Assembly: GCA_009691715.1 (NCBI GenBank)
Contig: SIAN01000013.1
Location: 24,868 to 88,867, forward strand
DNA: 64,000 nt
Direction of reading: 5' to 3'
Source of the DNA: Planctomycetota bacterium
Lineage (GTDB): Bacteria; Planctomycetota; B15-G4; SIAN01
The position numbers and the translations under genes were made by a program. Shown in pieces: positions 29,269 to 51,879 of the stretch; the first letter of the stretch is position 1, and each line of letters opens with the position of its first letter. The notes beneath the pieces are model-generated. The model had not been told where the DNA came from. It saw only the letters and a list, made by a program, of their open reading frames with translations, and did not search any database.

Positions 29269-30618
29269 ATGGCTCGACGCCCGAATTCCGCGAAGCTGCC
29301 GTTCACCCTGCTGGTCACTTCGCTGGTTGCAGCCTCTGGCTGCGACAACGCACTCCGAGGCAGTGGCGGCGCCGGGTCGACCATCGACAACACGCACTAC
29401 GAACTCACGTTTGCGTTCGACGACGGCTCGGCCGAGTCGACCGTGGTGATGGGCGCGCTTTCACGCATCGAACTGGCGCTGCCGACAGTCGGTTACTCGC
29501 GCGTGCTGTCGGTGCTGGACGACCTGGTCGACCCGGCGCGGCTCGCCGTCAGTCCGAGCGTGGATCTGGGCGATGTGTCGGGCGACTTCATCGCGGCCGG
29601 CACCAACATCGCCACCACGCTCCACGACCTTGGCCGGCTCCACGCGCTTGAGATGCCCGATGGCCGACCCGGAATCGCGATCGAGATCGATGACGGCGAG
29701 CTGCCGGCGTTCCCGATTGGCCGCATGCTCTGGACCGTGACCGTACTCGACGACATCGACCGCGTCTCGAACCCGCTGCAGGTCGGATTGACGGTGCGTG
29801 CGCCCGACCGGCCGACCGTCGCGTTGTCCTTGCAGATCCCGCCGTTCGGCTCGACCGTCCCGACCGGCGTCTCGCTTCCGATCGATGAGGAGAGCGTGCC
29901 CTACATCGGCAAGAGCCTCGACTTCGTGCTGGCGCTGCGCCTGATCCCGAATCCGGAGTCCGGCGCGATCTTCGAGAGTCTGGTCGTCGATGGCGCGATC
30001 GACATCGCGCGAGTCTCGGTCGTCGCCAACCGGAATCTGGGCGATCCCAAGAATGGCGGCTTCGATGCCGGCACCAACGTCGCGGCGCTGCTCGGTGCCG
30101 ACCTCGATGTGTTGGTCGACGCCGAGACCGGAGAGATGACGATCACGTTGCTCTTCCCGGTAGGCGCCGCCTACTCGCCGCTGCTGGGCGACACGCAGTT
30201 CACGATCTCGGCGATGGACGACGCCGACGTGCGCTCCTTCGACCAGGCGATCTCGCTCCGCGCGGTGACGCCGGTCAAGCTGTCGGCGAACGTGCAGTCG
30301 ATCCTCACGTCGAAGTGCGCGACGACCGTCTGCCACGACAACAGCAGCCCGGCCGCGGGCATGCGGCTCAACAGCGGCCGGACGTTCGGCGACACGGTGC
30401 GAATCCGCTCCGGCCAGACGCCGGAGGACTCGTGCGCGGCGAATCGCATCGAGCCCTACGTCCTCGACGCGTCGTACTTCTGGCACAAGCTCATGGACAC
30501 CCACGAGGATCCTTGTGTCGGCGGATCGGGCGGCGACATGCCTCCGACCGGAAACCTGACCGCAGGGCAGTTGGCGACCATCGAGGATTGGATTCTGCAG
30601 GGCGCGCATGACAACTGA
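29269..30618 (+). CDS. Lipoprotein of unknown function with a C-terminal Planctomycete-cytochrome-c-like (PSCyt-like) domain carrying CX4CH instead of CxxCH
   Basis: 449 aa from ATG 29269 (alternative 29239). Lipobox LLVTSLVAASGC. C-terminus VQSILTSKCATTVCHDNSSPAAGMRLNS...YFWHKL...GDMPPTGNLTAGQLATIEDWILQGA. The CATTVCH codons are at 30316-30336. Its stop overlaps the next gene start by 11 nt. Confidence 0.7.
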   Translation: MARRPNSAKLPFTLLVTSLVAASGCDNALRGSGGAGSTIDNTHYELTFAFDDGSAESTVVMGALSRIELALPTVGYSRVLSVLDDLVDPARLAVSPSVDLGDVSGDFIAAGTNIATTLHDLGRLHALEMPDGRPGIAIEIDDGELPAFPIGRMLWTVTVLDDIDRVSNPLQVGLTVRAPDRPTVALSLQIPPFGSTVPTGVSLPIDEESVPYIGKSLDFVLALRLIPNPESGAIFESLVVDGAIDIARVSVVANRNLGDPKNGGFDAGTNVAALLGADLDVLVDAETGEMTITLLFPVGAAYSPLLGDTQFTISAMDDADVRSFDQAISLRAVTPVKLSANVQSILTSKCATTVCHDNSSPAAGMRLNSGRTFGDTVRIRSGQTPEDSCAANRIEPYVLDASYFWHKLMDTHEDPCVGGSGGDMPPTGNLTAGQLATIEDWILQGAHDN

Positions 30619-32056
30619 ACCGCGTTGCGCAGTGCGCTCGGCCGTCGCTCTCGCCCTCTCCGTCGGACCGTTCGTGTCGAGCGCCGTCGCTGCTCCGACC
30701 GAACGTTTCGCGGAGCGCGAAGGTCTCGCTTGCGCCACCTGCCACGTCGGTACCGACGGCGGCCCGCTGACGGCGTTCGGCCGCGACTACCGCTGGCGCG
30801 CGCCGTTCTTCCAGGATGGCCAGGAAGGTGGCGAACTCGCCGCACCGGTGGGCGCAGGCAGCAGCTCGTTCGGCCGCTGGTCGGGCGAGCTCGCATCGTT
30901 TGCGCGGAGCGGCCGCGACCGCGCCTTCGGCGAGCGCACGCACACCTGGTCGGCGACCGAAACGCTTCGGCTCCGTGGCGACGAGTTGTTCGGCGACGAG
31001 TCGCTGTCGTTCCGCGGCGACGGCTTCGCCAGCAACTGGGACGGCAGCGGCGACTATGGCTTCGACGAAGACTCGCTGGGATTGAGCAGCGCGGAAGTGA
31101 CCTGGCGCGGCGACGCGGCCGGCTCGTTCGTTCGTTTCGGACGGCAGTTCGTCGTGGCGGGCGCAGCGACCCGTCGCGTGGATGGCGCCGCGATAAGGCA
31201 GCCGCTCGGTGAGCGACTCGAGCTCGACCTGTTCGGCGGTGCGCCAGTCGAGGACGGCCTCGGCGGGCGCGGCGGCGACCTCATCACCGGCGGCCGGCTT
31301 GGCGTGCGGCTCGGCCAATCGCTTCGTTTCGGCAGTTCGGCGTACTACGCCAAGGACCATTCCGACCCGAGCGACGTGAAGGGCGGGCTCGACTTGCAAT
31401 GGAGCCCCACGCGACGGTTCGAGCTCTTCACCCACTTCTACTGGGACTGGCTTGCCGACCAGCTCTACGACGCGCGCGCGCACCTGGTCTTCACGCCCAC
31501 GATCGAGTGGCAATTTGCGTACGACTGGACCCGCTCGGTGCCAGGCCTGTTCCTGCCGAAGAGCTCGCTCTACTCGGTCTTCTCCGACGAGGAGTACGTG
31601 GAGCACGGCCTCACGGTCACGCGCCGCTTTTCCTCCGCGCTGTCGGCCAACGTCTTCGGCCGCCACACCGACTACGCCGAGAGCGACTCGCTGGCGCAGG
31701 TTGGGAGCGGGCTCGACGCGCGCTACGGACCGAATGGCGAGGATGCGGTCGGTGCCGAGGCGGGCTGGCAGGACGAGTCGCGCACCAGCTTTGGCGGCAG
31801 CTCGACTGACGACGACGCGCTGTTCGCGCGAATCTGGCACCTGCTCTGGTGGACCGGCTCGATCTACACCGCGGTCGACGCCTCGACCTTGTTCGTGATG
31901 GACGATTCGTTCGAGCGCGATGCCGCGCTGGTCCGCATCGCCGCCGGCTACGACCCGCACGCGTGGTGGGACGCCGAGATCGGCACCGACTGGGTGCGCG
32001 ACCCCGACTTCGAGAGTCGTCTCGACTTGTTCGCGCGCCTGCGCATCCGGTTCTGA
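30608..32056 (+). CDS. Candidate fused monoheme cytochrome c - outer-membrane beta-barrel porin (Cyc2-like architecture)
   Basis: 482 aa. Signal peptide (AVRSAVALALSVGPFVSSAVAAP). A single CxxCH (FAEREGLACATCH, codons 30731-30745) lies immediately after the signal. The remaining ~430 aa are Gly/Asp/aromatic-rich with alternating-residue strands (LDLQWSPT, FELFTHFYWDW, AHLVFTPTIEWQFAYDW) and end in LRIRF, a C-terminal Phe as in OM barrels. Confidence 0.65.
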   Translation: MTTEPRCAVRSAVALALSVGPFVSSAVAAPTERFAEREGLACATCHVGTDGGPLTAFGRDYRWRAPFFQDGQEGGELAAPVGAGSSSFGRWSGELASFARSGRDRAFGERTHTWSATETLRLRGDELFGDESLSFRGDGFASNWDGSGDYGFDEDSLGLSSAEVTWRGDAAGSFVRFGRQFVVAGAATRRVDGAAIRQPLGERLELDLFGGAPVEDGLGGRGGDLITGGRLGVRLGQSLRFGSSAYYAKDHSDPSDVKGGLDLQWSPTRRFELFTHFYWDWLADQLYDARAHLVFTPTIEWQFAYDWTRSVPGLFLPKSSLYSVFSDEEYVEHGLTVTRRFSSALSANVFGRHTDYAESDSLAQVGSGLDARYGPNGEDAVGAEAGWQDESRTSFGGSSTDDDALFARIWHLLWWTGSIYTAVDASTLFVMDDSFERDAALVRIAAGYDPHAWWDAEIGTDWVRDPDFESRLDLFARLRIRF

Positions 32057-32069
32057 GCGGGAGTCGCCG

Positions 32070-33182
32070 ATGACGAAGTCGAACGCGAAGCGCACCCGCT
32101 GGGCCGTGGCGACTGCCGGCGCCCTGCTGCTGTTCGCGGCGTCGTGCATCGTCGTGACCGGTCGCACCGGCGACTCGATCCGCTTTTCTCCCGCCGCGCA
32201 CGCCGACCTGATGCAGGACTGCGATGGCTGCCACGACGGGATCGCCGGCCACGCGGTCGACGCCACGACGCGCCGGGCGCTCGAGGCGAAGTGCATCGCC
32301 TGCCACCAGGACCGGAAGGACGACTGCGCCTACTGCCACACCGATGTGGCCAACGCCGGGACCTTCCCGTACCGCGATCGCGCGCTCCTCTTCAGCCATG
32401 AGACGCACCTCGAACGGACGCACGGCGACTGCGAAGCGTGCCACGTGAACGCCCACGGGACGGTGAACTCGCTGCCCGACCCCGCCGGCCACGCAATGCC
32501 CAAGCACGCCGAATGCTTCTCCTGCCATGAAATGCAGGGCTTCTACGACCAGATGGAGTGCCGCAACTGCCATCAGGATCTGGCGCGCTACGGACTGCTG
32601 CCGTACGAGTCCTTCACGCACGCGGGCGATTTCGTCGGCCGCGGTCACGCACAGCTCCTGCGCTCGACCGGCAACGTCGCGACCTGCGCGCAGTGCCATG
32701 AGCAGTCGTCGTGCGACGAATGCCACTTTGCAGATGTGGGCGCCGGAGCGACCCGCCTCACGCCCGGAATGCGCCTGCCTGAGAAGGTCCACCTCGGGCT
32801 GATCCACCGCGGCGATTACCTCTTCCGCCATCCATGGGACGCGCGCAGCGACCCGGCCTCATGCGTGAAGTGCCACTCGACGAGCTATTGCCGCGACTGC
32901 CACGATGACCGCGGTCTGTCGGCGAAGGCCGCCTTGACGCGCACCGACGGCTTCCAGTTCCACGGGCCGGGCGTGCTCTTCCCCGGATCGAGCGAGTTCC
33001 ATGGCACCGCCGCGCGCCGCGATCCGATCTCCTGCGCCGCCTGCCACGAGGACGGCTCGCAGGCCAACTGCACCAGCTGCCATCGCGAAGGCGCATTCGG
33101 CGGCAACCCGCATCCAGCGGGATTCAAGAGTCGCCTCAACAAGCGGACGGCGTCGGTCTGCCGGCTCTGCCACACGAAGTGA
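32070..33182 (+). CDS. Multiheme c-type cytochrome lipoprotein with 13 CxxCH motifs
   Basis: 370 aa from ATG 32070 (GGGAG 6 nt upstream). Lipobox LLLFAASC. CxxCH sites: CDGCH, CIACH, CAYCH, CEACH, CFSCH, CRNCH, CAQCH, CDECH, CVKCH, CRDCH, CAACH, CTSCH, CRLCH. Many additional His residues could serve as distal ligands. Confidence 0.88.
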   Translation: MTKSNAKRTRWAVATAGALLLFAASCIVVTGRTGDSIRFSPAAHADLMQDCDGCHDGIAGHAVDATTRRALEAKCIACHQDRKDDCAYCHTDVANAGTFPYRDRALLFSHETHLERTHGDCEACHVNAHGTVNSLPDPAGHAMPKHAECFSCHEMQGFYDQMECRNCHQDLARYGLLPYESFTHAGDFVGRGHAQLLRSTGNVATCAQCHEQSSCDECHFADVGAGATRLTPGMRLPEKVHLGLIHRGDYLFRHPWDARSDPASCVKCHSTSYCRDCHDDRGLSAKAALTRTDGFQFHGPGVLFPGSSEFHGTAARRDPISCAACHEDGSQANCTSCHREGAFGGNPHPAGFKSRLNKRTASVCRLCHTK

Positions 33183-33224: not shown

Positions 33225-35005
33225 TCAATGACGCAGGTAGCCGAGCTCGCGCAGCCGCTCGATCTCGGAGGGCGTCAGCTCGCGGCGCTTGGGTCCGCCG
33301 GAGGACGGCAGCGACTCGCTGACGGCGCGATGATCCTCGCGGCACGCCTCGAGCTGCCGCAACGGTCCCTGCAACCGCGCCGGGTCGTCTTGCGCGAGGT
33401 CGTGACGCGCGGCGGGATCGACATCGACGCGGAAGAGCCGCAGTCGTTCCGGCACATCGCCCTGCGCCGGCCAGCGCATCAGTTTCCACGGGCCGACCAC
33501 CAGTGCGTCGCGGTCGACCGGCCGCGTTCCATCGCCGAGGACCAGCAGCCGCGGGCGATCGCTCTCCTCGGGCGGAGCCGGCGCGAGACGATCGACGGCC
33601 AGCACGCGCGGATCGGGCGGAAGGCCGAGCAGTCCCGCGAGCGTCGGCGCGGCACGTCCGGGCCGCGCAGGATCCACGGCACCTGCGTCGACTCGCGATC
33701 AAGCTCCTGGTGAAGGCCAAAACGGCCGTGCTCCTGGAACTCCTCGCCGTGGTCGGCGATCACGCAGACGACGGTCCGCTCGGCGCGGCCGAGCCGTTCG
33801 GCCACCGCCGCGGCTTCGCCGCGATCCGCCTGCTGCGACAACGCCTCGACCGAGCGATCGGATGGCTTCGCGGCGCCTGCGCCGCCGCGCGCCCGCCAAT
33901 GCGGATGGGGTCGGTAGTTGCGGACCAGGAAGGCGTGGACGAACAGGCAGAACGGCTGGTCGGCGTGCCGGCGCAGCCAGTCGAGCGTGAAGTCGACATC
34001 GTCGTGCTCGCCGCGCGCTCGTGCGGCCTTCTGCGCGTCCGGGAGTCGATTCAGCCGCGACCGCGCGCGCGGATCGTCGATGCCGTACCAGTCGAAGCCG
34101 AGGCCGAATCCGCTGCGCGGCTGCACCGGACCGCCGCTGGTGAACGCCGCCGTGGACCAGCCGAGATCGCGGAGCCGCTTCGACCAAAGCAGCGTCTGCA
34201 CCGGATCGATCACTCGATCGTCGGCGTCGGCGGAGAACGCGACCTCGACGATGCCGGGCGCAGCTCCGTACCCCGGTTCCGGACTGGTCACGCTGCCGCG
34301 CCACGTCGGCTGGCCGTCGACCAAGATGGCCAGGTCGACGATTCGACCGCAGTCCGATGACAGCGCTGCCGGACGGAACAGCAGGCGCGGTCGCTCGCGC
34401 GGGACTTCCACTCGCCACGTGACCGAGGCGCCGCTCGGCACCAGCAGCGCATCGCCGGTGGCGTGGAGCAGGTCGACGGTGCGCGCCAGCGGGTGGGTCG
34501 ATTCATCGATCACGAGGCGCGGCAGGGTCGCGAGCTCCGCGATCGAGCGCGACTCGGCGAGTGCGATCCAGTCGAGATCGAGCGGCGCGTCGCCGGAATC
34601 CGCGATCGGGAGTTCGACCCGTTCAATCTCGATCGCATCGTTGAAGGAGATCTGCACCAGGCGCTCCGCCTGCTCGTCCGGCGAGGGCGCTGCCGCGTGG
34701 TGGTGCCAGACCAACAACTGCGCCGGGATGGTGCCGGTGCCGGCAAGTCGTCGCGCGGGGTCGGCGAGGCGTCCGCGGGATCCGCGAGGTCGCGGCCGTC
34801 GAACCAATCACGATCGGGCGCCGCGTCGGCATCGCTGCGCCAGGCCGTCCGACCGAGCGCCGCGCTGCCGGGGGGGCGCCGTCGCGCCTGCGCCGGTGCC
34901 CGCGCCAGGGCCGGAATCGCCGCCGACCGCGCAGGCCGCGGCGACGAACGATCCGACGAAGAGGCTGCGAACGGCAGTTGGGGCAGGAAGGCGGAGACGG
35001 CTCAT
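33225..35005 (-). pseudogene. Decayed paralog of the sulfatase-like lipoprotein at 36638-39118 (frameshifts, internal loss of the catalytic core)
   Basis: The signal/lipobox segment MSRLRLPAPTAVRSLFVGSFVAAAC (34808-35005 frame) runs into a stop. The middle part (track ORF 33479-34807) aligns by eye with the paralog (ALLVPSGASVTWRVEVPRERPRLLF vs ALLVPAAAAITFHVAVPATRPRLRF) but lacks the ~90 aa holding LLISLDTTR...SPSAWTLPTH. The C-terminus (track ORF 33225-33677; GPWKLMRW...EIERLRELGY) is in a different frame. Confidence 0.7.
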
Positions 35006-36657
35006 CGCCGCACCCGGAAGAGTTGCACGAACGGGCCCGGTCGGGCGAAGCCGTCGAAGCCGGAGTAGGGCAGGTAGAGAAGGTCACGCCGATCGAATCG
35101 CGGCGCCACGTCTTCGCGCGTGCGTCCCGCGGCGAGCGGTCCGAAGGCGGCCGCCGGTTCGAGCGCGGGCTCGAGCTGCGCCAGCAGTTCCTCAGGCAGG
35201 TCGAACTGCGAGTCGAGCCAGTGATCGGCGATGACCACCCAGCTGTAGCCCGCAGCGCGCAGCACCGCCGCCGGATCGGCATCGGGCGGGAGTTCCTCTT
35301 GCAGCGGTTTGCCGTCCTGCAGGTCGATGCGCGCGTCGAACCCAGGCGGGAAGGGCCAGGAGTAGCGGCCGATCCAGAGCGCGCGCTCGCCCTCGGCGAG
35401 ATGGGCGCGCAGGTGATCGGCGGCGAGCTCGCGGCTGTCGCGTGCTCGGAGCAGGCGATCCGTCGCGACGATGCGTGCAGTCGACGGCGCGGCGATCGCG
35501 AGGGCGGCGATCGCGATCGACGCGGCGCGCGCCCGCGCCGGGAGGAAGGACGATCCCATTGCCGTGATTGCGCGTGCGGCGAAGAGCGCGGCGATCGGCG
35601 TGAGCGGCAGCATGTAGCGCGCGAAGCCGCGCGTTCCGCTGCCCATGCCGAGGTACCAGGCGAGGGCGAACGCGACGACGATCGGCGTGCCGCGGCTTTC
35701 GCGCAGCGTCGTGATCAGCAGGCCGATCAGCGCGAGGACCGCGACCGGAGCGCCGAGCCCATCGAGGAGCGTGAAGCTCGCGTGGGTCACCCAGCCACGT
35801 TCGGCAAAGCGCGCGTTGGCGGCGGTCTTGTTCTCGAATTCGAAGCGAACGTCGGCGAGGAAGCGGCTCGGCTCGATCAGCGCATGCGGATTGAGCAGGA
35901 GGAACGTCGTTGCCGCGCACGTGCCGGCCAGGAGCAACGAGCCGATCCCCAGCGTCAGGCGGCGGCGCCATGGCGAAGCGCCGGCCGCAGTGGCGTCGTC
36001 GGGCGCGCTCCGGAACGCCTCGATCAAGAGCGGCACAGCCAGCCAGACCGCCGGCTGTTTCACCGCCGCTGCCACTCCGATGGCGACACCGCACCAGGCG
36101 AAACGGCGCCAGCGCGGCCAATCGACCGAACGCACGAACAGCAGCAGCGCGCCCGTCGTCGCCAGCGCGAGCGTCGTGTCGGTCACGCCGAAATGGCTGT
36201 CGCGGCTGTGGAGGTGGCAGAGCGCGAGCAGCAGCGCGGCGATCAGCGCCTCGCCAGCGCCGCGCAGGCGGCGGACCAGCAGGAAGAGCAGCGCCACGGT
36301 GGCGACGCCGGCGCACGCCGACACGATGCGGCTCGCGAGGTAGCCGGCGACGTGCGGCGGGACGCTCGGGTCGCTGTCGGGTGCGGCGAGTTCGAGCCCG
36401 AGTCGCGCGCCCGCGGAGAGCATCGGGAAGAGCGCCGGATAGGCGAAGCTCCTCGGGCTCCACTCGCCTTCGAGCATCTTCGAGGCGTAGCCCGCGACGC
36501 GGTTTTCGTCGGGCCGCGCGTAAGGGATCGCGAGGCCGAATTCGAGGCCGGTGAAGCGCGCGATGGCTGCCACCGCGAGGATCAGCACCAGCGCCAGCGC
36601 GATCCGTCCGCGGAGTGGCGGCGGGCGATCGACCGCGTCATCCATCGCCGTAGCCAA
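35002..36657 (-). CDS. Polytopic membrane glycosyltransferase, GT39/ArnT/PMT_2-like
   Basis: 551 aa with about 10+ hydrophobic helices. The early loop ARPDENRVAGYA has a DE-type motif like the ArnT/PMT family; the C-terminal ~130 aa are soluble. Its start overlaps the upstream stop by 20 nt, and its stop overlaps the downstream start as ATGA. Confidence 0.6.
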   Translation of the reverse strand: MATAMDDAVDRPPPLRGRIALALVLILAVAAIARFTGLEFGLAIPYARPDENRVAGYASKMLEGEWSPRSFAYPALFPMLSAGARLGLELAAPDSDPSVPPHVAGYLASRIVSACAGVATVALLFLLVRRLRGAGEALIAALLLALCHLHSRDSHFGVTDTTLALATTGALLLFVRSVDWPRWRRFAWCGVAIGVAAAVKQPAVWLAVPLLIEAFRSAPDDATAAGASPWRRRLTLGIGSLLLAGTCAATTFLLLNPHALIEPSRFLADVRFEFENKTAANARFAERGWVTHASFTLLDGLGAPVAVLALIGLLITTLRESRGTPIVVAFALAWYLGMGSGTRGFARYMLPLTPIAALFAARAITAMGSSFLPARARAASIAIAALAIAAPSTARIVATDRLLRARDSRELAADHLRAHLAEGERALWIGRYSWPFPPGFDARIDLQDGKPLQEELPPDADPAAVLRAAGYSWVVIADHWLDSQFDLPEELLAQLEPALEPAAAFGPLAAGRTREDVAPRFDRRDLLYLPYSGFDGFARPGPFVQLFRVRR

Positions 36658-39118
36658 GGCCCTTCAGCCGTTCGAGTTCGCCCTGCGTGAGATCGCGCGT
36701 GAGGACGTTGCTCCCGGGCAACTCCGCCGCCTGCTCTTCCAGCGCGCGCAGCCGCCGGTCGAGCCTTAGCGTCAGCGTCCGCAATCGCACCGGATCCTCG
36801 GCCGCGCGATCGTTCCGCTCGAGCGGGTCCTCGTCGAGGTTGAACAGCTTCAGTTCCGTCGCGCCGCCTTCCTTGCGCCAGCGCATCAGCTTCCACGGCC
36901 CGACCTCGAGCGCCTCGCGACCGCCCGGCTCGCGGAACGGACCGAACAGCAGCAGGAACTCGTGCTCGTCGTCCGTCTCGCCGGCGCCTGGTGCGAGCTG
37001 GTCGCGGCCGAAATCGAGCGGTTCCGGCGGCAGTTCGAGCAGGCTCGCGAGCGTGGCCGAGACATCGGCGAGGTCGACCTTGTCGCGGCGCACCGCGCCC
37101 GCCGGGACCCCCGGCCCGCGCAGCAGCCACGGCACCCGCGTTGACTCGCGCCAGAGCTCGAGCCGGTGGCCGAACTGCCCATGGTCGAGGTGCTCTTCGC
37201 CGTGGTCGGCGAGGATGCAGACGATGGTGTCGTCGGCGAGGTTGAGCGCGTCGAGTTCGCCGAGCAGCCGTGGGATCAACGTCGCGTCGGTCTCGTGGAG
37301 CGCCGCGGCGTAAAGCCGCTTCAGCCGCTCGAGCGCGGCCGCATCGCCCGCCATCGCCTTCTCGCCCATCACCAGCGGCTGGTCGCGCTCGATCCGGGCG
37401 GCGGGGTCGGCGAACTTCGCCAGGTACTCGGGGTGCGGGAAGTAGTTGTGCACGAAGAAGGTATGCACGAAGAGGAAGAACGGCTGCTCGTGGTGGGCGC
37501 GCATCCATTCGAGCGTCGGCGCCAGCCAGTCGGCGTCGCTGGCGCGCACGGCGCGCTGGTCGGGCGCCTCGTGGTTGTACTTGGTGAGCCCGAGCGGATC
37601 GTTGGTGCCGTAATAGTCGAAGCCGTAGCCGAATCCGTTGCGCGGCACCATCGGGCCGCCGCCGGTGAACGCCGCCGTGCACCAGCCCTGTTCGCGCAAC
37701 CGCGCCGCGAGCGGCCGCGATCGCACCGGGTCCATGTAGCGCGGATGGGCGATCATCCCGTGCAGGATCGGGTGCTGTCCGGTGAACAGGCTCATGTGCG
37801 TGGGCAGCGTCCAGGCGGAAGGAGACACGACCTGATCGAAGCGCGTCGCCTGTGTGGCGAAGGCGTCGAGGTGAGGCGTGAGCCCCTGCTTGTTCCCGTA
37901 GCAGCCGAGCAGATCGGAGCGCGTGGTGTCGAGCGAGATCAGCAGCAGGTTCTTGCGGCGCGGTCGATCGGGCGGCGCCGAGCCGAGCAATTCAGGAGCG
38001 CCAAACCAGCCGACCGCGTCGGTGTCGTCCGCGGTTTCCGCGGCGAACTCGATCGCGATCCGCTGTCCGGCCAGCGGCACGAGGTCGATCTCGACCGGCA
38101 CGAGTGCGGTCGCCTCGTCGATGCGAAACGTCGCCATCCGGCGACGCCACAGCTCGCGGCCCTCCGCGCGCACGACGAGGTCGACGGCTCGGCCACGCGA
38201 GTCGCAGAGCGCGCCCGGCAGAAAGCGCAGTCGCGGCCGTGTCGCCGGCACTGCGACGTGGAACGTGATCGCCGCCGCCGCCGGCACCAGCAGCGCGTCG
38301 CACACCTCGTCAACGAGATCGACGACGCGCCGGCGTGGATCGAGCGAGCCGTCGCAGGCGAGTCGCGGCGTGTGATGGATTCGCGCCGGCGTCGCGAGTC
38401 GGCGCAGTTCAACCCGGTCGATCTCGAGGCCCTGGTCCGACGGCAGCAGCGAGATGCTGATCGTTCGCGCACCGGCGCGCGGCGCGAGGAACAGCGACAA
38501 GTCGCGCCAGCCGCCGATCGCATCGTCGGGCAGAGCGCTCGCGCGACCGCCGAGGCGCTCCGCATCCGGGACTGCGAGCAACGCGGCGCGCAGCCCGGCC
38601 GCGTCCGGCGCTGCGATCGAGAGCGGGGTCATGCGCACTGCGGCACCGCGCGAACCGGCGGGCGCGCGCAGCCGTGCGCTTACGAGATAGGCAGCGTCCG
38701 GCTCGGTCGCGACCAGCGCGTGGAGGCCGTGGCTCGCGGCGTCGATCGCGCCGAGACGTCCGCTCTCGGTGGCGACGAGTCGCACGGCCGCACGGCGTGG
38801 CCGGTGGTCGTCGAGGAGGGATTCGTCGAGCCACGCGTCGTCGAACCACGGGAACGCCAGCGGCGCGTCGAACTCCTCGGCGAGGAGCACGGCGCTCGAT
38901 TCGTCGGCGACGCCGTCGAGGCCGCGCAGGCTCCCGTGCACCGTCGCGTCGGCGAGCTGGTCGAGCAGGTGGAGGGGCGTGGCGGCGCTGTGGGGCGCGG
39001 CCGACGAGGTGGTTGGTCGCGGATCGGCGCCGCTGCACGCGCCGACCAGCGATCCCACGAGCGTGGCCGCACCGATCGCGTTCCGCCGGGACTTCATGAA
39101 GCGGGCCGCGCGGTTCAT
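36638..39118 (-). CDS. Lipoprotein with N-terminal non-catalytic region plus sulfatase-like (alkaline-phosphatase superfamily) domain; T-x-P-x-H in place of C/S-x-P-x-R
   Basis: 826 aa. Lipobox TLVGSLVGAC. Metal site LLISLDTTRSD; nucleophile region SPSAWTLPTHMSLFTG; ILADHGEE...GHR. C-terminal ELERLKGLGY tail shared with the paralogs. Confidence 0.8.
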   Translation of the reverse strand: MNRAARFMKSRRNAIGAATLVGSLVGACSGADPRPTTSSAAPHSAATPLHLLDQLADATVHGSLRGLDGVADESSAVLLAEEFDAPLAFPWFDDAWLDESLLDDHRPRRAAVRLVATESGRLGAIDAASHGLHALVATEPDAAYLVSARLRAPAGSRGAAVRMTPLSIAAPDAAGLRAALLAVPDAERLGGRASALPDDAIGGWRDLSLFLAPRAGARTISISLLPSDQGLEIDRVELRRLATPARIHHTPRLACDGSLDPRRRVVDLVDEVCDALLVPAAAAITFHVAVPATRPRLRFLPGALCDSRGRAVDLVVRAEGRELWRRRMATFRIDEATALVPVEIDLVPLAGQRIAIEFAAETADDTDAVGWFGAPELLGSAPPDRPRRKNLLLISLDTTRSDLLGCYGNKQGLTPHLDAFATQATRFDQVVSPSAWTLPTHMSLFTGQHPILHGMIAHPRYMDPVRSRPLAARLREQGWCTAAFTGGGPMVPRNGFGYGFDYYGTNDPLGLTKYNHEAPDQRAVRASDADWLAPTLEWMRAHHEQPFFLFVHTFFVHNYFPHPEYLAKFADPAARIERDQPLVMGEKAMAGDAAALERLKRLYAAALHETDATLIPRLLGELDALNLADDTIVCILADHGEEHLDHGQFGHRLELWRESTRVPWLLRGPGVPAGAVRRDKVDLADVSATLASLLELPPEPLDFGRDQLAPGAGETDDEHEFLLLFGPFREPGGREALEVGPWKLMRWRKEGGATELKLFNLDEDPLERNDRAAEDPVRLRTLTLRLDRRLRALEEQAAELPGSNVLTRDLTQGELERLKGLGYGDG

Positions 39119-49323: not shown

Positions 49324-51879
49324 TCAATAACCGAGCTGGTCGAGGTCGGGGCTGCGCAGTCCGCCGGGAATCGAGCTGGCAGGAAGTCGGGTGCGCTCCA
49401 GTTCGCGGAAGTGCGCCTCGAACGCGCGGCGCAGCGCGATGGCTTCCTGCGGCTGTTCCGCGTCGGGACGCGGCGTGCCGTGCAGGTCGAGCGCCAGCAG
49501 GTTCTGCCGCTCGCGCGGATCGAGGGGCAGGGCGTACAGCGCCAGCAGCGGAAGACGCGGCCGGATCGGCGAATAGCGCGTCATTTGGATCAGCTTGAAA
49601 CCGCCGGTTTCGAGCGCGCGCAGTTCTCCGAGGTGGGGTTCGGAGACTTCGGCGGAGAAGGGCGCCGTGGCCTCCGCCGGCACCGGCAGCAACGTGCGGC
49701 CGGTCGCGCCAGGCAGGCCGGGCAACCCGCAGAGTTCGAGCAAGGAAGGCGCGACGTCGGCGAGCGCGACCGGCGTCTTGTCGCGGCGCGGGGCGAGTCC
49801 CGGCGCACGCACGATCAGCGGCACCCGGAGCACTTCGTCGTAGAGCGTGCGGCCGTGGCCGAACCCGCCGTGCTCGCCGAGCTCCTCGCCATGGTCCGAC
49901 AGCAGCACCACGATTGTGTCGCGGTCGAGGCCGAGCTCGGACAGCAGCGCGAGGAAGTGCCCGACTTCGCGGTCGACGGCGGCGACCGAGGCGTCGTAGC
50001 GGTTGCGCAGGTCGGGCAGCTGTTCGGCCGTCGGCGTGCGCTCGTCGCTGTCGGCGAGAGGATCGAACTTGCCCGGCTCGCGCGAGACCTTGAAGCGCTC
50101 GCAGAGGTCGGCGGGCGGCCGGTAGTTGTGGACGGCGTAGGTGTGAAGGAAGAGGAAAAACGGTGCCGATCGATTCGCGACCAGCCACTCGCGCAGCGCC
50201 GGCAATCCGCTGCGGCGCCAGAACGCGGCGTTCAGCGCGGTCTCGCCGGGTCGCGGCATCATCTGGCGCATCGGCTCCTGCTCGTGCAGGAACGGGTCGA
50301 GCGTCGACCAGCGGTCGAAGCCGCGCCAGAGCCCGTAGACGGGCGACAGGAAGCCGCCGCCGGTGAAAGCCGCCGAAACATAGCCGCCCTCGCGGAAGCG
50401 ATCGATCAGGCGAACGCAAGCCGTTGCGGCCAGCGTCGAGTCGAACCGCTCGATTCCGTGCACCGTCGGATGGAGACCGGTCAGGAGCGAGGCGTGCGAC
50501 GGCAGCGTGTAGGGCGACTGGGCGCGCGCCTCCTCGAACACGACGGCGTCGCGCGCCAACGCGTCGATCGCCGGGCTCTGCTGGTTGCCGTCGTCGCGCC
50601 TGGCGCCGTAGGCTCCGAGGCGGTCGGGGCGCAAGGTGTCGATGCTGATCAGCACGACGTTGCGGGGCGCGCCGGCGGGGCGTGCGTCGGGCACCAGCAG
50701 CGGCAGCGATACGGCGAAGAGATCCTCAGTCGGTCGGCTGCTCGCCGATTCGGCCGCGATCACGAACGTGGCCGGTTCTCCGCTGCCGACGCCGTCGAAG
50801 GTGGCGTCGTGCCAGCCGGCACTCTCCAATCGCTCGCGCGGTGCAACGGCGCGTTGCGGCAACGCGATGGGGGTCGTGCTGTCGGCTGTCTCGAGTCGGG
50901 CGGAGACCCGCACTTCGACACGGCCCGCCGCGGGCCGCGACTCCTCCGCGACGCCGTAGCCGAAGGTGAGGCGGTAGCGGCCGGTCGGCAGCGTGACCGG
51001 CAGGCGGATCTCGCTCGGCGGCGGAGCGATCCAGGCGACGCGCGTCTCGCCACCGATCGTGACCTCGCGCTCCCACTCGGAGCCGGACTGTCGCGCGTCC
51101 GCCGCCAACGTCGGCAGCACGCGCGCGAGCGGGAGTTCGAACAGCGCCAGATCATCGAAATCGATCGGGCCGTCGGTGCGCGAGGCGATGGTCGGCGTTG
51201 CGCCCGCGATGTCGGCCGGTGCCCCTCCGAACAGCATCACCAGCACGCTGCTGGTGCGGCCGCTGGTCGTGAAGCGAACGCGCAGGTCGCCGTAGCTGCC
51301 GTCCTCGGGCGGAGCTACGCGATGTTCGGCGATCGGCTTCCCGAGTTGCGAGTCGAGCTCCGCCAGCGTCTTGCCGTCAGCGAGCCGACCCTGTTGCGGC
51401 TGGAAGAACTCGACGATGGTGAGCTCGCCGGCGCGTGGCGCGCAGGTGCCGGCACCGGCAGCGGGGCGACGCGCTCGCACTTTGGCCACGTAGGGCGTTT
51501 CTGGCCGCACCGGCAGCCACCAGAGCAGCGCGCCATTCTGCGACTGGAATCGCATGCCGGCTTTGCCGCGGGCGGCTGCGAGCGCGTCGGCTTTCACCTC
51601 CGGCGACGCGACGCCGTCGATCGAGCGGATCGGCGTGATGACTCCGTCGCACTCCAGATCCTGCTCGAAGCCGCGCACGAACGACGGCATGAGCCCGCGC
51701 TCGATCTCGGCGTCCGGCGCGCGCCATGGCGTTTGGACGGTGACGCGCCCGGAGTCAGCGAGTCGCGTGACTTGATTCACACCCGCGGTCGAATCCTCCG
51801 CGCCGCAGCTTGCGGCGGCGCAAAGTGCAGCGAGCGCAGCCCCCCCGATCGCGCGCGCGGTCAATGCGCGTCGAGCCAT
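49324..51879 (-). CDS. Lipoprotein with N-terminal non-catalytic region plus sulfatase-like domain (third paralog; T-x-P-x-H nucleophile region)
   Basis: 851 aa. Lipobox ALAALCAAASC. VVLISIDTLRPD, SPYTLPSHASLLTG, LLSDHGEE...GHG. C-terminal ...DLDQLGY. Confidence 0.8.
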   Translation of the reverse strand: MARRALTARAIGGAALAALCAAASCGAEDSTAGVNQVTRLADSGRVTVQTPWRAPDAEIERGLMPSFVRGFEQDLECDGVITPIRSIDGVASPEVKADALAAARGKAGMRFQSQNGALLWWLPVRPETPYVAKVRARRPAAGAGTCAPRAGELTIVEFFQPQQGRLADGKTLAELDSQLGKPIAEHRVAPPEDGSYGDLRVRFTTSGRTSSVLVMLFGGAPADIAGATPTIASRTDGPIDFDDLALFELPLARVLPTLAADARQSGSEWEREVTIGGETRVAWIAPPPSEIRLPVTLPTGRYRLTFGYGVAEESRPAAGRVEVRVSARLETADSTTPIALPQRAVAPRERLESAGWHDATFDGVGSGEPATFVIAAESASSRPTEDLFAVSLPLLVPDARPAGAPRNVVLISIDTLRPDRLGAYGARRDDGNQQSPAIDALARDAVVFEEARAQSPYTLPSHASLLTGLHPTVHGIERFDSTLAATACVRLIDRFREGGYVSAAFTGGGFLSPVYGLWRGFDRWSTLDPFLHEQEPMRQMMPRPGETALNAAFWRRSGLPALREWLVANRSAPFFLFLHTYAVHNYRPPADLCERFKVSREPGKFDPLADSDERTPTAEQLPDLRNRYDASVAAVDREVGHFLALLSELGLDRDTIVVLLSDHGEELGEHGGFGHGRTLYDEVLRVPLIVRAPGLAPRRDKTPVALADVAPSLLELCGLPGLPGATGRTLLPVPAEATAPFSAEVSEPHLGELRALETGGFKLIQMTRYSPIRPRLPLLALYALPLDPRERQNLLALDLHGTPRPDAEQPQEAIALRRAFEAHFRELERTRLPASSIPGGLRSPDLDQLGY

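Follow-up and report, generated by a model that had tools for sequence, protein, structure and literature searches.

A Planctomycetota beta-barrel with a Cyc2-like haem module, most likely part of a hybrid porin-cytochrome conduit

Two designs for moving electrons across the outer membrane are recognised: the Cyc2 porin fused to a single haem, and a barrel forming a sheath around a multihaem cytochrome that is a separate protein. A gene in a 64-kb stretch of DNA from a planctomycete (the window) raises the question of which design its product follows. A sequence-only reading had taken the 482-aa protein encoded by ORF 30608-32056(+) for a Cyc2-like fused monohaem cytochrome-porin, with the implication that the known host range of Cyc2 might extend to this organism. 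Our analysis indicates that the protein is most likely a hybrid porin-cytochrome conduit rather than a true Cyc2 iron oxidase. The features of the locus are listed in Table 1.

Table 1. Features of the barrel gene and its two neighbours, in window coordinates
Feature	Residues	Position	Strand	Basis
Upstream lipoprotein gene, ~449 aa		29269..30618	+	ORF and motifs; start placed further upstream, at a TTG (29239), by the ORF lister
Signal peptide of the barrel protein	1-28	30608..30691	+	Sequence inspection; cleavage predicted between AVA and AP
Putative Cyc2-type single-haem module, APTERFAEREGLACATCHVGTDGGPLTAFGRDYRWRAP	29-66	30692..30805	+	Invariant residues, HHalign, HMM scores; CATCH at 30731-30745
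Gly/Ser/Ala-rich low-complexity tether, haem module to strand 1	67-89	30806..30874	+	Gap-rich alignment region; AlphaFold2 pLDDT <50
Predicted 22-strand outer-membrane beta-barrel, ending RLRIRF and stop	90-482	30875..32056	+	AlphaFold2, Foldseek, conservation
Conserved strand 13-14 loop, PGLFLPKSSLYSVFS...	311-329	31538..31594	+	Conservation; two short helices in AlphaFold2
Downstream cytochrome gene, 370 aa, 13 CxxCH, c7-type units		32070..33182	+	Motif count, Pfam, PDB

The gene product and its N-terminal haem module

The GC3 of the ORF (0.86) is typical for genes in the window. Homologs keep the MTT(E/D) start of the protein, and the start codon overlaps the stop of the upstream gene by 11 nt. 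The N-terminus, MTTEPRCAVRSAVALALSVGPFVSSAVA followed by APTERF, has a hydrophobic core behind a charged n-region, and its cleavage site reads AVA-A, in keeping with the cleavable-looking signal peptide described in the sequence-only reading. The single CATCH (residues 42-46, preceded by FAEREGLA) lies ~14 residues past the predicted cleavage site and hence in the mature protein; its loss with the cleaved signal peptide, which that reading had named as a ground for rejection, does not apply. The sole other cysteine, C7, falls within the signal peptide, and the protein ends in FARLRIRF, so the earlier description of one CATCH, no further Cys pairs and a C-terminal RLRIRF was accurate. Pfam and NCBIfam searches with the protein returned no match, including no cytochrome model at the N-terminus, the cluster names of ten relatives all read "hypothetical protein", and a promoter and terminator scan at the locus was uninformative.

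Alignment of the haem-bearing (CxxCH-containing) relatives revealed that C42, C45, H46, G51, G52, L54, G58 and R59 are invariant in 22 of 22 sequences. Because the motif and its flanking residues are kept in all of them, the CxxCH is, judged from this alignment, more than chance. We compared the module with 65 metagenomic proteins picked by the published Cyc2 motif in a metagenome DNA-pattern scan, rather than with curated cluster 1-3 sequences, and HHalign matched the two over 43 columns (96.5%, E 7e-10). An HMM of the Cyc2 N-terminus gave each of the 22 family members 11-26 bits, while ~75 control CxxCH sites received -4.7 to 10.5 bits. These comparisons make it probable that the ~40-residue module and the cytochrome module of Cyc2 are homologous. 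The similarity scores themselves are modest, at ~20 bits.

The likeness extends to spacing. The distances from F to Cys (F-8-C) and from His to Leu equal those of one Cyc2 subgroup, and the CH(x7)LTxFGRx[FY][KR] pattern of the barrel protein is length-matched to CHVGGFGPQLTPFGRQFKL of that subgroup. The stretch after CATCH, CHVGTDGGPLT, is as long as the subgroup's CHVGGFGPQLT and differs from the canonical CHxxxPxL; its Leu is invariant at +8 and its Pro variable at +7. In the haem-bearing family GG[PASE]L stands in place of the PXL of Cyc2.

Published criteria for Cyc2 comprise a signal peptide, a single N-terminal CXXCH, a length of at least 365 aa, the motif AXPXFAR[Q/K][T/Y], PXL four residues after CXXCH, and a 16-strand porin like OprO/OprP/PhoE/PorB (Keffer et al. 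2021, PMC8406198). Our protein has the layout and the length, with a signal peptide, one CXXCH near the N-terminus and 482 aa. It departs from the motif, reading AAPTERFAEREGLAC (AAPTERFAERE): F-A stands at the Cyc2 spacing, ERE replaces R[QK][TY], and two residues are inserted after P-x. Among the 65 Cyc2-motif proteins the consensus upstream of CXXCH is AVPSFARQTGLAC, and these proteins are likewise cleaved directly before their xPxFARQ motif. Half of the haem-bearing family lacks AXPXFAR[Q/K][T/Y], with distant members reading, for example, AAPCRAQGGSLSC or DANDPTSGLSC. An NCBIfam search with three of the Cyc2-motif proteins gave no match, so that collection holds no curated Cyc2 model for them.

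A flexible tether of ~25 residues, whose length varies among aligned homologs, links the module to strand 1. AlphaFold2 leaves the N-terminal module unplaced, at pLDDT below 50-65. The haem module is missing from P0016 (locus L138), a close relative that retains both partner genes, so the module may be dispensable. H276 was also weighed as a distal haem ligand, since strand periodicity points it into the lumen and it is commoner among haem-bearing barrels; the idea found no support, because the haem-bearing P0017 has Leu at this position and the module-less P0016 retains the His.

A predicted 22-strand barrel from a mostly haem-less superfamily

AlphaFold2, run with a 111-sequence alignment (A3), returned a mean pLDDT of 86 overall and of ~95-98 over residues 90-481. 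The barrel expected from sequence is present in this model (pLDDT ~95), but with 22 strands in place of the ~16 that had been anticipated. TonB-dependent receptors are likewise 22-stranded; that identity was rejected, as the protein has neither a plug domain nor a Pfam match. Foldseek searches with the barrel model retrieved generic large barrels only, the best being 24-strand usher pores (TM ~0.5), with 16-strand porins at TM ~0.25. PDB sequence searches with the A2 and A3 profiles yielded nothing specific, only a borderline LptD hit (E 0.001). Profile comparison detected no similarity between this barrel and those of Cyc2 (15.7% local, 0.1% global), which have 16 strands (PMC8406198, PMC10654088).

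Relatives of the barrel were found elsewhere. A profile search recovered 582 of them, mostly ~410-445 aa long and without CxxCH. Conservation with these haem-less barrels covers the barrel core (residues 176-332), and G178, G185, D192, G193, G228, R230, S244, D262, P312, S320 and F325 are common to both; by sequence, the barrel is clearly homologous to the ~420-aa haem-less proteins. The best conserved stretch across the superfamily is the strand 13-14 loop, which by topology should be extracellular loop 7 in the model, and whose P312, S320, V324 and F325 are shared by haem-bearing and haem-less barrels. In a tree of the 111 sequences the 16 haem-bearing barrels form a single clade. Their named sources are all Planctomycetota MAGs, and the family was found in 4 of 185,579 species genomes. 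A search of a 5.8-billion-protein set with the A3 profile, aimed at named Geobacter relatives, returned the known family only.

Partner genes and the proposed conduit

The barrel gene sits in a tight cluster of three, between a lipoprotein gene with a C-terminal CX4CH domain and a gene for a 13-haem cytochrome. The upstream lipoprotein has a lipobox-like VAASGC (Cys codon 29341-29343) and a ~100-aa C-terminal domain with CATTVCH (CX4CH, 30316-30336); Pfam, NCBIfam and PDB sequence searches with it gave no match. Homologs adjoin the close barrel relatives (56-57% identity) and two distant haem-bearing barrels, at L132 (37%, with a canonical CTQCH) and L133 (33%, with CAQIGCH). Around the relatives at L001 and L010, no lipoprotein gene turned up within 10 kb.

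The downstream cytochrome, whose start lies 13 nt past the barrel stop codon, matches Pfam Cytochrome_C7 and Paired_CXXCH_1 as well as PDB 3ouq (1.4e-7), and begins with a hydrophobic segment ending in a lipobox-like FAASC. A 13-haem cytochrome follows the barrel in every family locus examined whose contig extends past the barrel, with 58-74% identity within the haem-bearing family, and the barrel-cytochrome synteny holds down to 27% barrel identity. At the three haem-less loci with informative gene context, the barrel is followed by a cytochrome of 339-370 aa, with 13 CxxCH in the two counted (L006, L007); two of these cytochromes, orthologues of the one in the window, are 41% (E 3e-83) and 36% (E 4e-58) identical to it. 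Cytochromes with MtrC-like or GSu_C4xC__C2xCH (OmcB-type) domains precede haem-less barrels, and large surface multihaem cytochromes are encoded beside two of the three. No gene for such a surface cytochrome was seen at the haem-bearing family loci, and genes for cytochrome c maturation, for an oxidase or for quinol-linked proteins are absent from the 64-kb window.

A porin-cytochrome complex is defined generically as an outer-membrane beta-barrel encoded beside a multihaem c-type cytochrome, together with an outer-membrane redox lipoprotein (PMC6148476, PMC5566968), and at the window locus a barrel gene does adjoin a multihaem c-type cytochrome gene. The Geobacter conduits OmbB-OmaB-OmcB, ExtABCD and ExtEFG likewise combine a ~18-22-strand barrel, a redox lipoprotein and, encoded next to the barrel, a periplasmic multihaem cytochrome, which in Geobacter has 8-12 haems (PMC6148476). 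Further parallels are the OmcB-type GSu_C4xC__C2xCH and MtrC-like domains in neighbours of the haem-less superfamily members, and the c7-type units of the 13-haem partner; any kinship with OmbB/ExtB/ExtE/ExtI is suggested indirectly, by the neighbour Pfam domains. The Planctomycetota system differs from the Geobacter conduits in its host, in carrying a predicted haem on the barrel itself, and in a lipoprotein with one putative haem as against 5-12. MtrAB, MtoAB and PioAB share the concept of a multihaem cytochrome sheathed by a short-loop barrel, but they use 26-strand Pfam MtrB_PioB barrels and a decahaem MtrA-type partner, with no fused haem; the 22-strand protein described here has no match to MtrB_PioB at E up to 1.

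On balance, we think it probable that three proteins make up an outer-membrane electron conduit of the porin-cytochrome type, with this gene supplying its barrel; in this conduit haem attachment, outer-membrane location and complex formation are predictions from sequence and model. The 13-haem cytochrome would dock at the barrel or within it, in the manner of MtrA with MtrB, and conduct electrons through the outer membrane. MtrA, with 10 haems, is housed in a 26-strand barrel; 22 strands may leave a lumen too narrow for a cytochrome with 13. Since the lipobox-like Cys of the cytochrome is conserved, it may sit either at the periplasmic face or at the cell surface. The tethered haem would begin on the periplasmic side, where it could cap the mouth of the barrel or thread into the lumen, and would add one relay site to the haem chain. 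With the single-haem lipoprotein, it would replace the large surface multihaem cytochromes found beside two of the three informative haem-less relatives. We favour exchange with soluble extracellular redox species, given the Cyc2 type of the fused module and the lack of a gene for a large surface cytochrome. Electron uptake from Fe(II) is the likeliest direction, and is the weakest step of the argument. A large surface cytochrome is likewise missing from MtoAB and PioAB, the conduits of Fe(II) oxidisers.

Direction is accordingly where the nearest alternative lies. It is possible, though we lean against it, that the same conduit runs outward, as Geobacter Pcc and Ext do, with respiratory electrons leaving the periplasm for extracellular acceptors, for example Fe(III) in soluble or chelated form, Mn(IV) or humic quinones. 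Porin-cytochrome conduits such as Mtr and Mto are reversible in principle, the MtrC-like and OmcB-like cytochromes that flank haem-less relatives are of the kind that metal reducers have, and c7-type units like those of Geobacter make up the 13-haem partner. Against this stand the lack of a large surface multihaem cytochrome in the haem-bearing family and the functional validation of the fused module type so far only in Fe(II) oxidases (PMC8406198), neither of which is decisive. Within the conduit reading, a more specific arrangement, "Cyc2 on a wire", seems to us unlikely: here the tethered Cyc2-type haem would thread into the lumen as the outermost, substrate-facing site and feed electrons straight into the 13-haem wire.

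That the protein is a genuine Cyc2, self-sufficient in oxidising dissolved Fe(II) in its pore and passing electrons to soluble periplasmic carriers, is very unlikely. Like Acidithiobacillus ferrooxidans Cyc2, Mariprofundus Cyc2PV-1 and Leptospirillum Cyt572, it combines a signal peptide, one N-terminal CxxCH module and an outer-membrane barrel ending in Phe at similar length, and its haem module resembles theirs; this much of the proposed Cyc2-like fused cytochrome-porin stands. Membership of the Cyc2 family is not supported. FAR[QK][TY] is replaced here by FAERE and is not conserved among the relatives, the barrel has 22 strands rather than 16 and is unrelated to Cyc2 barrels by profile, and its homologs are haem-less barrels tied to multihaem cytochromes. 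Cyc2 is moreover described as acting alone, whereas the haem-bearing barrel is constantly linked, in the loci examined, to a 13-haem cytochrome gene and usually also to a single-haem lipoprotein; we know of no published Cyc2 description with a 13-haem partner. For these reasons (motif, strand number, absence of barrel profile similarity, mostly haem-less superfamily and 13-haem partner), the extension of the Cyc2 host range does not hold as stated. Least credible of all is a CxxCH that binds no haem but forms a metal or thiol-disulfide site, on a barrel that is an ordinary solute channel beside a cytochrome gene: the N-terminus unmatched by Pfam and NCBIfam cytochrome models and the one module-less relative would fit, but the motif's invariance, the conserved synteny and the resemblance to the module of Cyc2 proteins, for which haem binding and Fe(II) oxidation have been shown (PMC8406198), argue against it.

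Significance

The haem-bearing barrel family mixes elements of the two designs, joining a Cyc2-type haem module to a barrel of the kind that works with a multihaem partner. Should the module prove to bind haem and to participate in electron transfer, the Cyc2 cytochrome domain would be a part that can move between proteins, not the signature of one family. Searches that call a protein "Cyc2" from the N-terminal motif and the presence of any porin could then mistake such hybrids for iron oxidases. Were "Cyc2 on a wire" true, the module would be a portable unit grafted onto an unrelated porin-cytochrome barrel, and the family a mechanistic and evolutionary bridge between both known classes of outer-membrane iron oxidoreductase. 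The compact three-gene system is suited to expression studies, with the natural module-less variant as a built-in control. To our knowledge, Planctomycetota is not a phylum known for iron oxidation; the haem-bearing family points to extracellular electron exchange in uncultured, high-GC members outside the anammox lineage.

Haem motif, family and comparison with Cyc2

The open reading frame that the sequence-only reading had proposed as a Cyc2-like fused cytochrome-porin exists (see table), and its GC3 of 0.86 resembles that of other genes in this ~69% GC window. The N-terminus of its product, hereafter the barrel protein, reads MTTEPRCAVRSAVALALSVGPFVSSAVA/APTERFAEREGLACATCHVGTDGGPLTAFGRDYRW, the slash marking the predicted cleavage (AVA/A). 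The single CxxCH (C42, C45 and H46) lies ~14 residues past this site, so the haem motif is kept in the mature protein rather than lost with the signal peptide, the outcome which that reading had named as refuting its proposal. The only other cysteine is inside the signal peptide, and the C-terminal RLRIRF is present as described.

Word-indexed searching of 5.8 billion proteins returned only 14 relatives; an HMM run in full against 1.84 billion cluster representatives raised the haem-bearing set to 22, in all of which C42, C45, H46, G51, G52, L54, G58 and R59 are invariant. The family occurs in 4 of 185,579 species-representative genomes, all four being Planctomycetota MAGs, and one further member is annotated Planctomycetota. 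All relatives are named "hypothetical protein", the barrel protein is matched by neither Pfam nor NCBIfam, and full-text literature searches turned up no account of a comparable haem-tethered barrel.

Published Cyc2 criteria comprise a signal peptide, one CXXCH, AXPXFAR[Q/K][T/Y] upstream and PXL after the haem site, a length of at least 365 aa and a 16-strand porin (PMC8406198), the strand count being given also in PMC10654088. As a reference, we collected 65 full-length proteins (387-581 aa, one CxxCH each, consensus AVPSFARQTGLACAACHTSFPELTPFGRRFKLNGYT) by scanning metagenomic contigs at the DNA level for FARQ[T/Y]...CxxCH. When the family profile was compared with the profile of these proteins, a single 43-column alignment emerged, confined to the haem module (96.5% probability, E 7e-10); with the barrels only, the probability was 15.7% (local) or 0.1% (global). 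An HMM of the Cyc2 N-terminus scored 11-26 bits on all 22 haem-bearing members, against -4.7 to 10.5 bits on ~75 control CxxCH sites taken from neighbouring cytochromes, and the reciprocal HMM matched 65/65 Cyc2-motif proteins (median 14.6 bits versus 2.8-8.4 for controls). The barrel protein also agrees with the Cyc2 subgroup CHVGGFGPQLTPFGRQFKL in two distances, Phe to first Cys and His to invariant Leu. Given the profile match, the modest HMM scores and this spacing, we regard it as probable that the haem module belongs to the Cyc2 type. Unlike Cyc2, however, the window protein lacks the defining FAR[QK][TY], as does half of the family, and its barrel comes from a different family. The proposed identity thus probably holds for the haem module, and we rejected the protein as a member of the Cyc2 family.

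Barrel fold and superfamily

AlphaFold2 predicted a barrel already with a 13-sequence alignment; with 111 sequences, the mean pLDDT was higher, at 86, and values within the barrel were 95-98. The model has short loops on both faces, and its 22 strands, between residues 90 and 481, depart from the ~16 expected by the earlier reading, which was right in anticipating a barrel. In Foldseek searches of the PDB, the 24-strand usher pores FimD and PapC ranked top (TM ~0.5), while 16-strand general porins reached only ~0.25.

Profile searching at E up to 0.001 gathered a superfamily of 582 relatives, most of them 410-445 aa long, without CxxCH and with the barrel beginning right behind the signal peptide. 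Haem-bearing and haem-less barrels share a core (residues 176-332) that includes G178, G185, D192, G193, P213, G228, R230, G242, S244, D262, P312, S320, V324 and F325. Conservation across both groups peaks in the loop joining strands 13 and 14, a candidate region for contact with the partner cytochrome. A tree of 111 sequences, built on barrel columns only, placed 16 haem-bearing proteins in one clade with no haem-less member inside.

Other fusions were observed on the superfamily barrel: an N-terminal class I cytochrome c-like region in P0100, P0101 and P0111 (Pfam-confirmed for P0100), and N-terminal zinc ribbons in P0024 and P0034 (Pfam-confirmed for P0024). P0074 gave a weak, sub-threshold SPOR-like match at its C-terminus. 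It seems that small domains were fused to this barrel on several occasions.

Partner genes and locus context

Features of the barrel locus and surrounding window
Feature	Position	Strand	Remarks
Lipoprotein gene	29269-30618	+	overlaps barrel start by 11 nt; lipobox-like ASGC
Barrel protein gene	30608-32056	+	482 aa
Strand 13-14 loop	31538-31594		residues 311-329; PGLFLPKSSLYSVFS
13-haem cytochrome gene	32070-33182		starts 13 nt past barrel stop codon; 370 aa, 13 CxxCH
Cytochrome N-terminal region	32070-32150		hydrophobic segment ending in Cys
ORF	33225-33677	-	passes GC3 filter; overlaps next ORF
ORF	33228-33713	+	passes GC3 filter
PMT-family glycosyltransferase gene	35002-36657		adjoins next gene
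Large paralog-like gene	36638-39118	-	sulfatase and phosphodiesterase domains
Large paralog-like gene	49324-51879	-	sulfatase and phosphodiesterase domains

The ~100-aa C-terminal domain of the upstream lipoprotein carries CATTVCH (…ILTSKCATTVCHD…MPPTGNLTAGQLATIEDWILQGA) and has no match in Pfam, NCBIfam or the PDB; by eye, it was likened to the "Planctomycete cytochrome C" type. Homologs (33-37% identity) adjoin two distant haem-bearing barrels (L132:516-1820 and L133:5552-6925). The window and L133 proteins have CX4CH, but L132 has a canonical CXXCH (CTQCH) at this position, which supports a putative haem-binding role for this domain.

The downstream cytochrome matches Pfam Cytochrome_C7 and Paired_CXXCH_1 and, in the PDB, the c7-type multihaem fragment 3ouq (1.4e-7). 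All family loci examined have a homolog downstream of the barrel (58-74% identity), and the same cytochrome family also lies behind haem-less barrels (L007, 41% identity, E 3e-83; L006, 36%). In all the 13-haem cytochromes compared (window, L001, L006, L007, L132 and L133), a Cys ends the N-terminal hydrophobic segment (FAASC, FASSC, CISC, VAAC, LGAC). Because of this conserved lipobox-like Cys, they may be lipid-anchored instead of soluble in the periplasm, and the window's cytochrome may sit at either the periplasmic face or the cell surface.

Two of three informative haem-less loci also have large cytochromes upstream, with MtrC/MtrF-type or OmcB-type (GSu_C4xC__C2xCH) domains, following the same gene logic of barrel plus multihaem cytochromes as the Geobacter porin-cytochrome conduits (PMC6148476). 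The wide barrel comes from a family whose members pair with multihaem cytochromes, with a conserved 13-haem partner and a conserved lipoprotein bearing one putative haem site.

The remaining window genes are housekeeping (guaB, guaA, gatCAB, sulfatases, a PMT-family glycosyltransferase, methylmalonyl-CoA mutase and DNA polymerase I), and a search of the 64 kb for cytochrome maturation and oxidase genes found none. The sulfatase/phosphodiesterase and PMT content is typical of Planctomycetota and unrelated to the barrel.

A possible outer-membrane conduit

We infer that the products of this tight gene trio, lipoprotein, barrel and 13-haem cytochrome, form an outer-membrane electron conduit. Barrel topology in the model predicts a periplasmic position for the tethered haem module, which AlphaFold2 fails to place; its tether is variable and of low complexity in the alignment and model. 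The haem could act as an extra relay, at the barrel mouth or within the lumen. Further caveats apply to the conduit: a 13-haem protein may fit only tightly into a 22-strand lumen; the lipobox-like Cys of that protein bears on where it would sit; and a close relative, P0016 (L138:216-1565), has no CxxCH in any frame of the region, and hence no haem module, yet is still flanked by genes for the lipoprotein (upstream) and the 13-haem cytochrome (downstream). P0016 represents either a natural loss of the module or a copy in decay.

For the direction of flow, we favour Fe(II) as the electron donor, since this type of haem module has been validated in Fe(II) oxidases only (PMC8406198); a conduit running outward and exporting electrons is a serious rival. 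The two single-haem elements might stand in for the large surface cytochromes of haem-less relatives, a substitution that would suit soluble substrates. We classify the haem-tethered barrel as a porin-cytochrome conduit barrel with an acquired Cyc2-type haem module, and not as an addition to the Cyc2 family.
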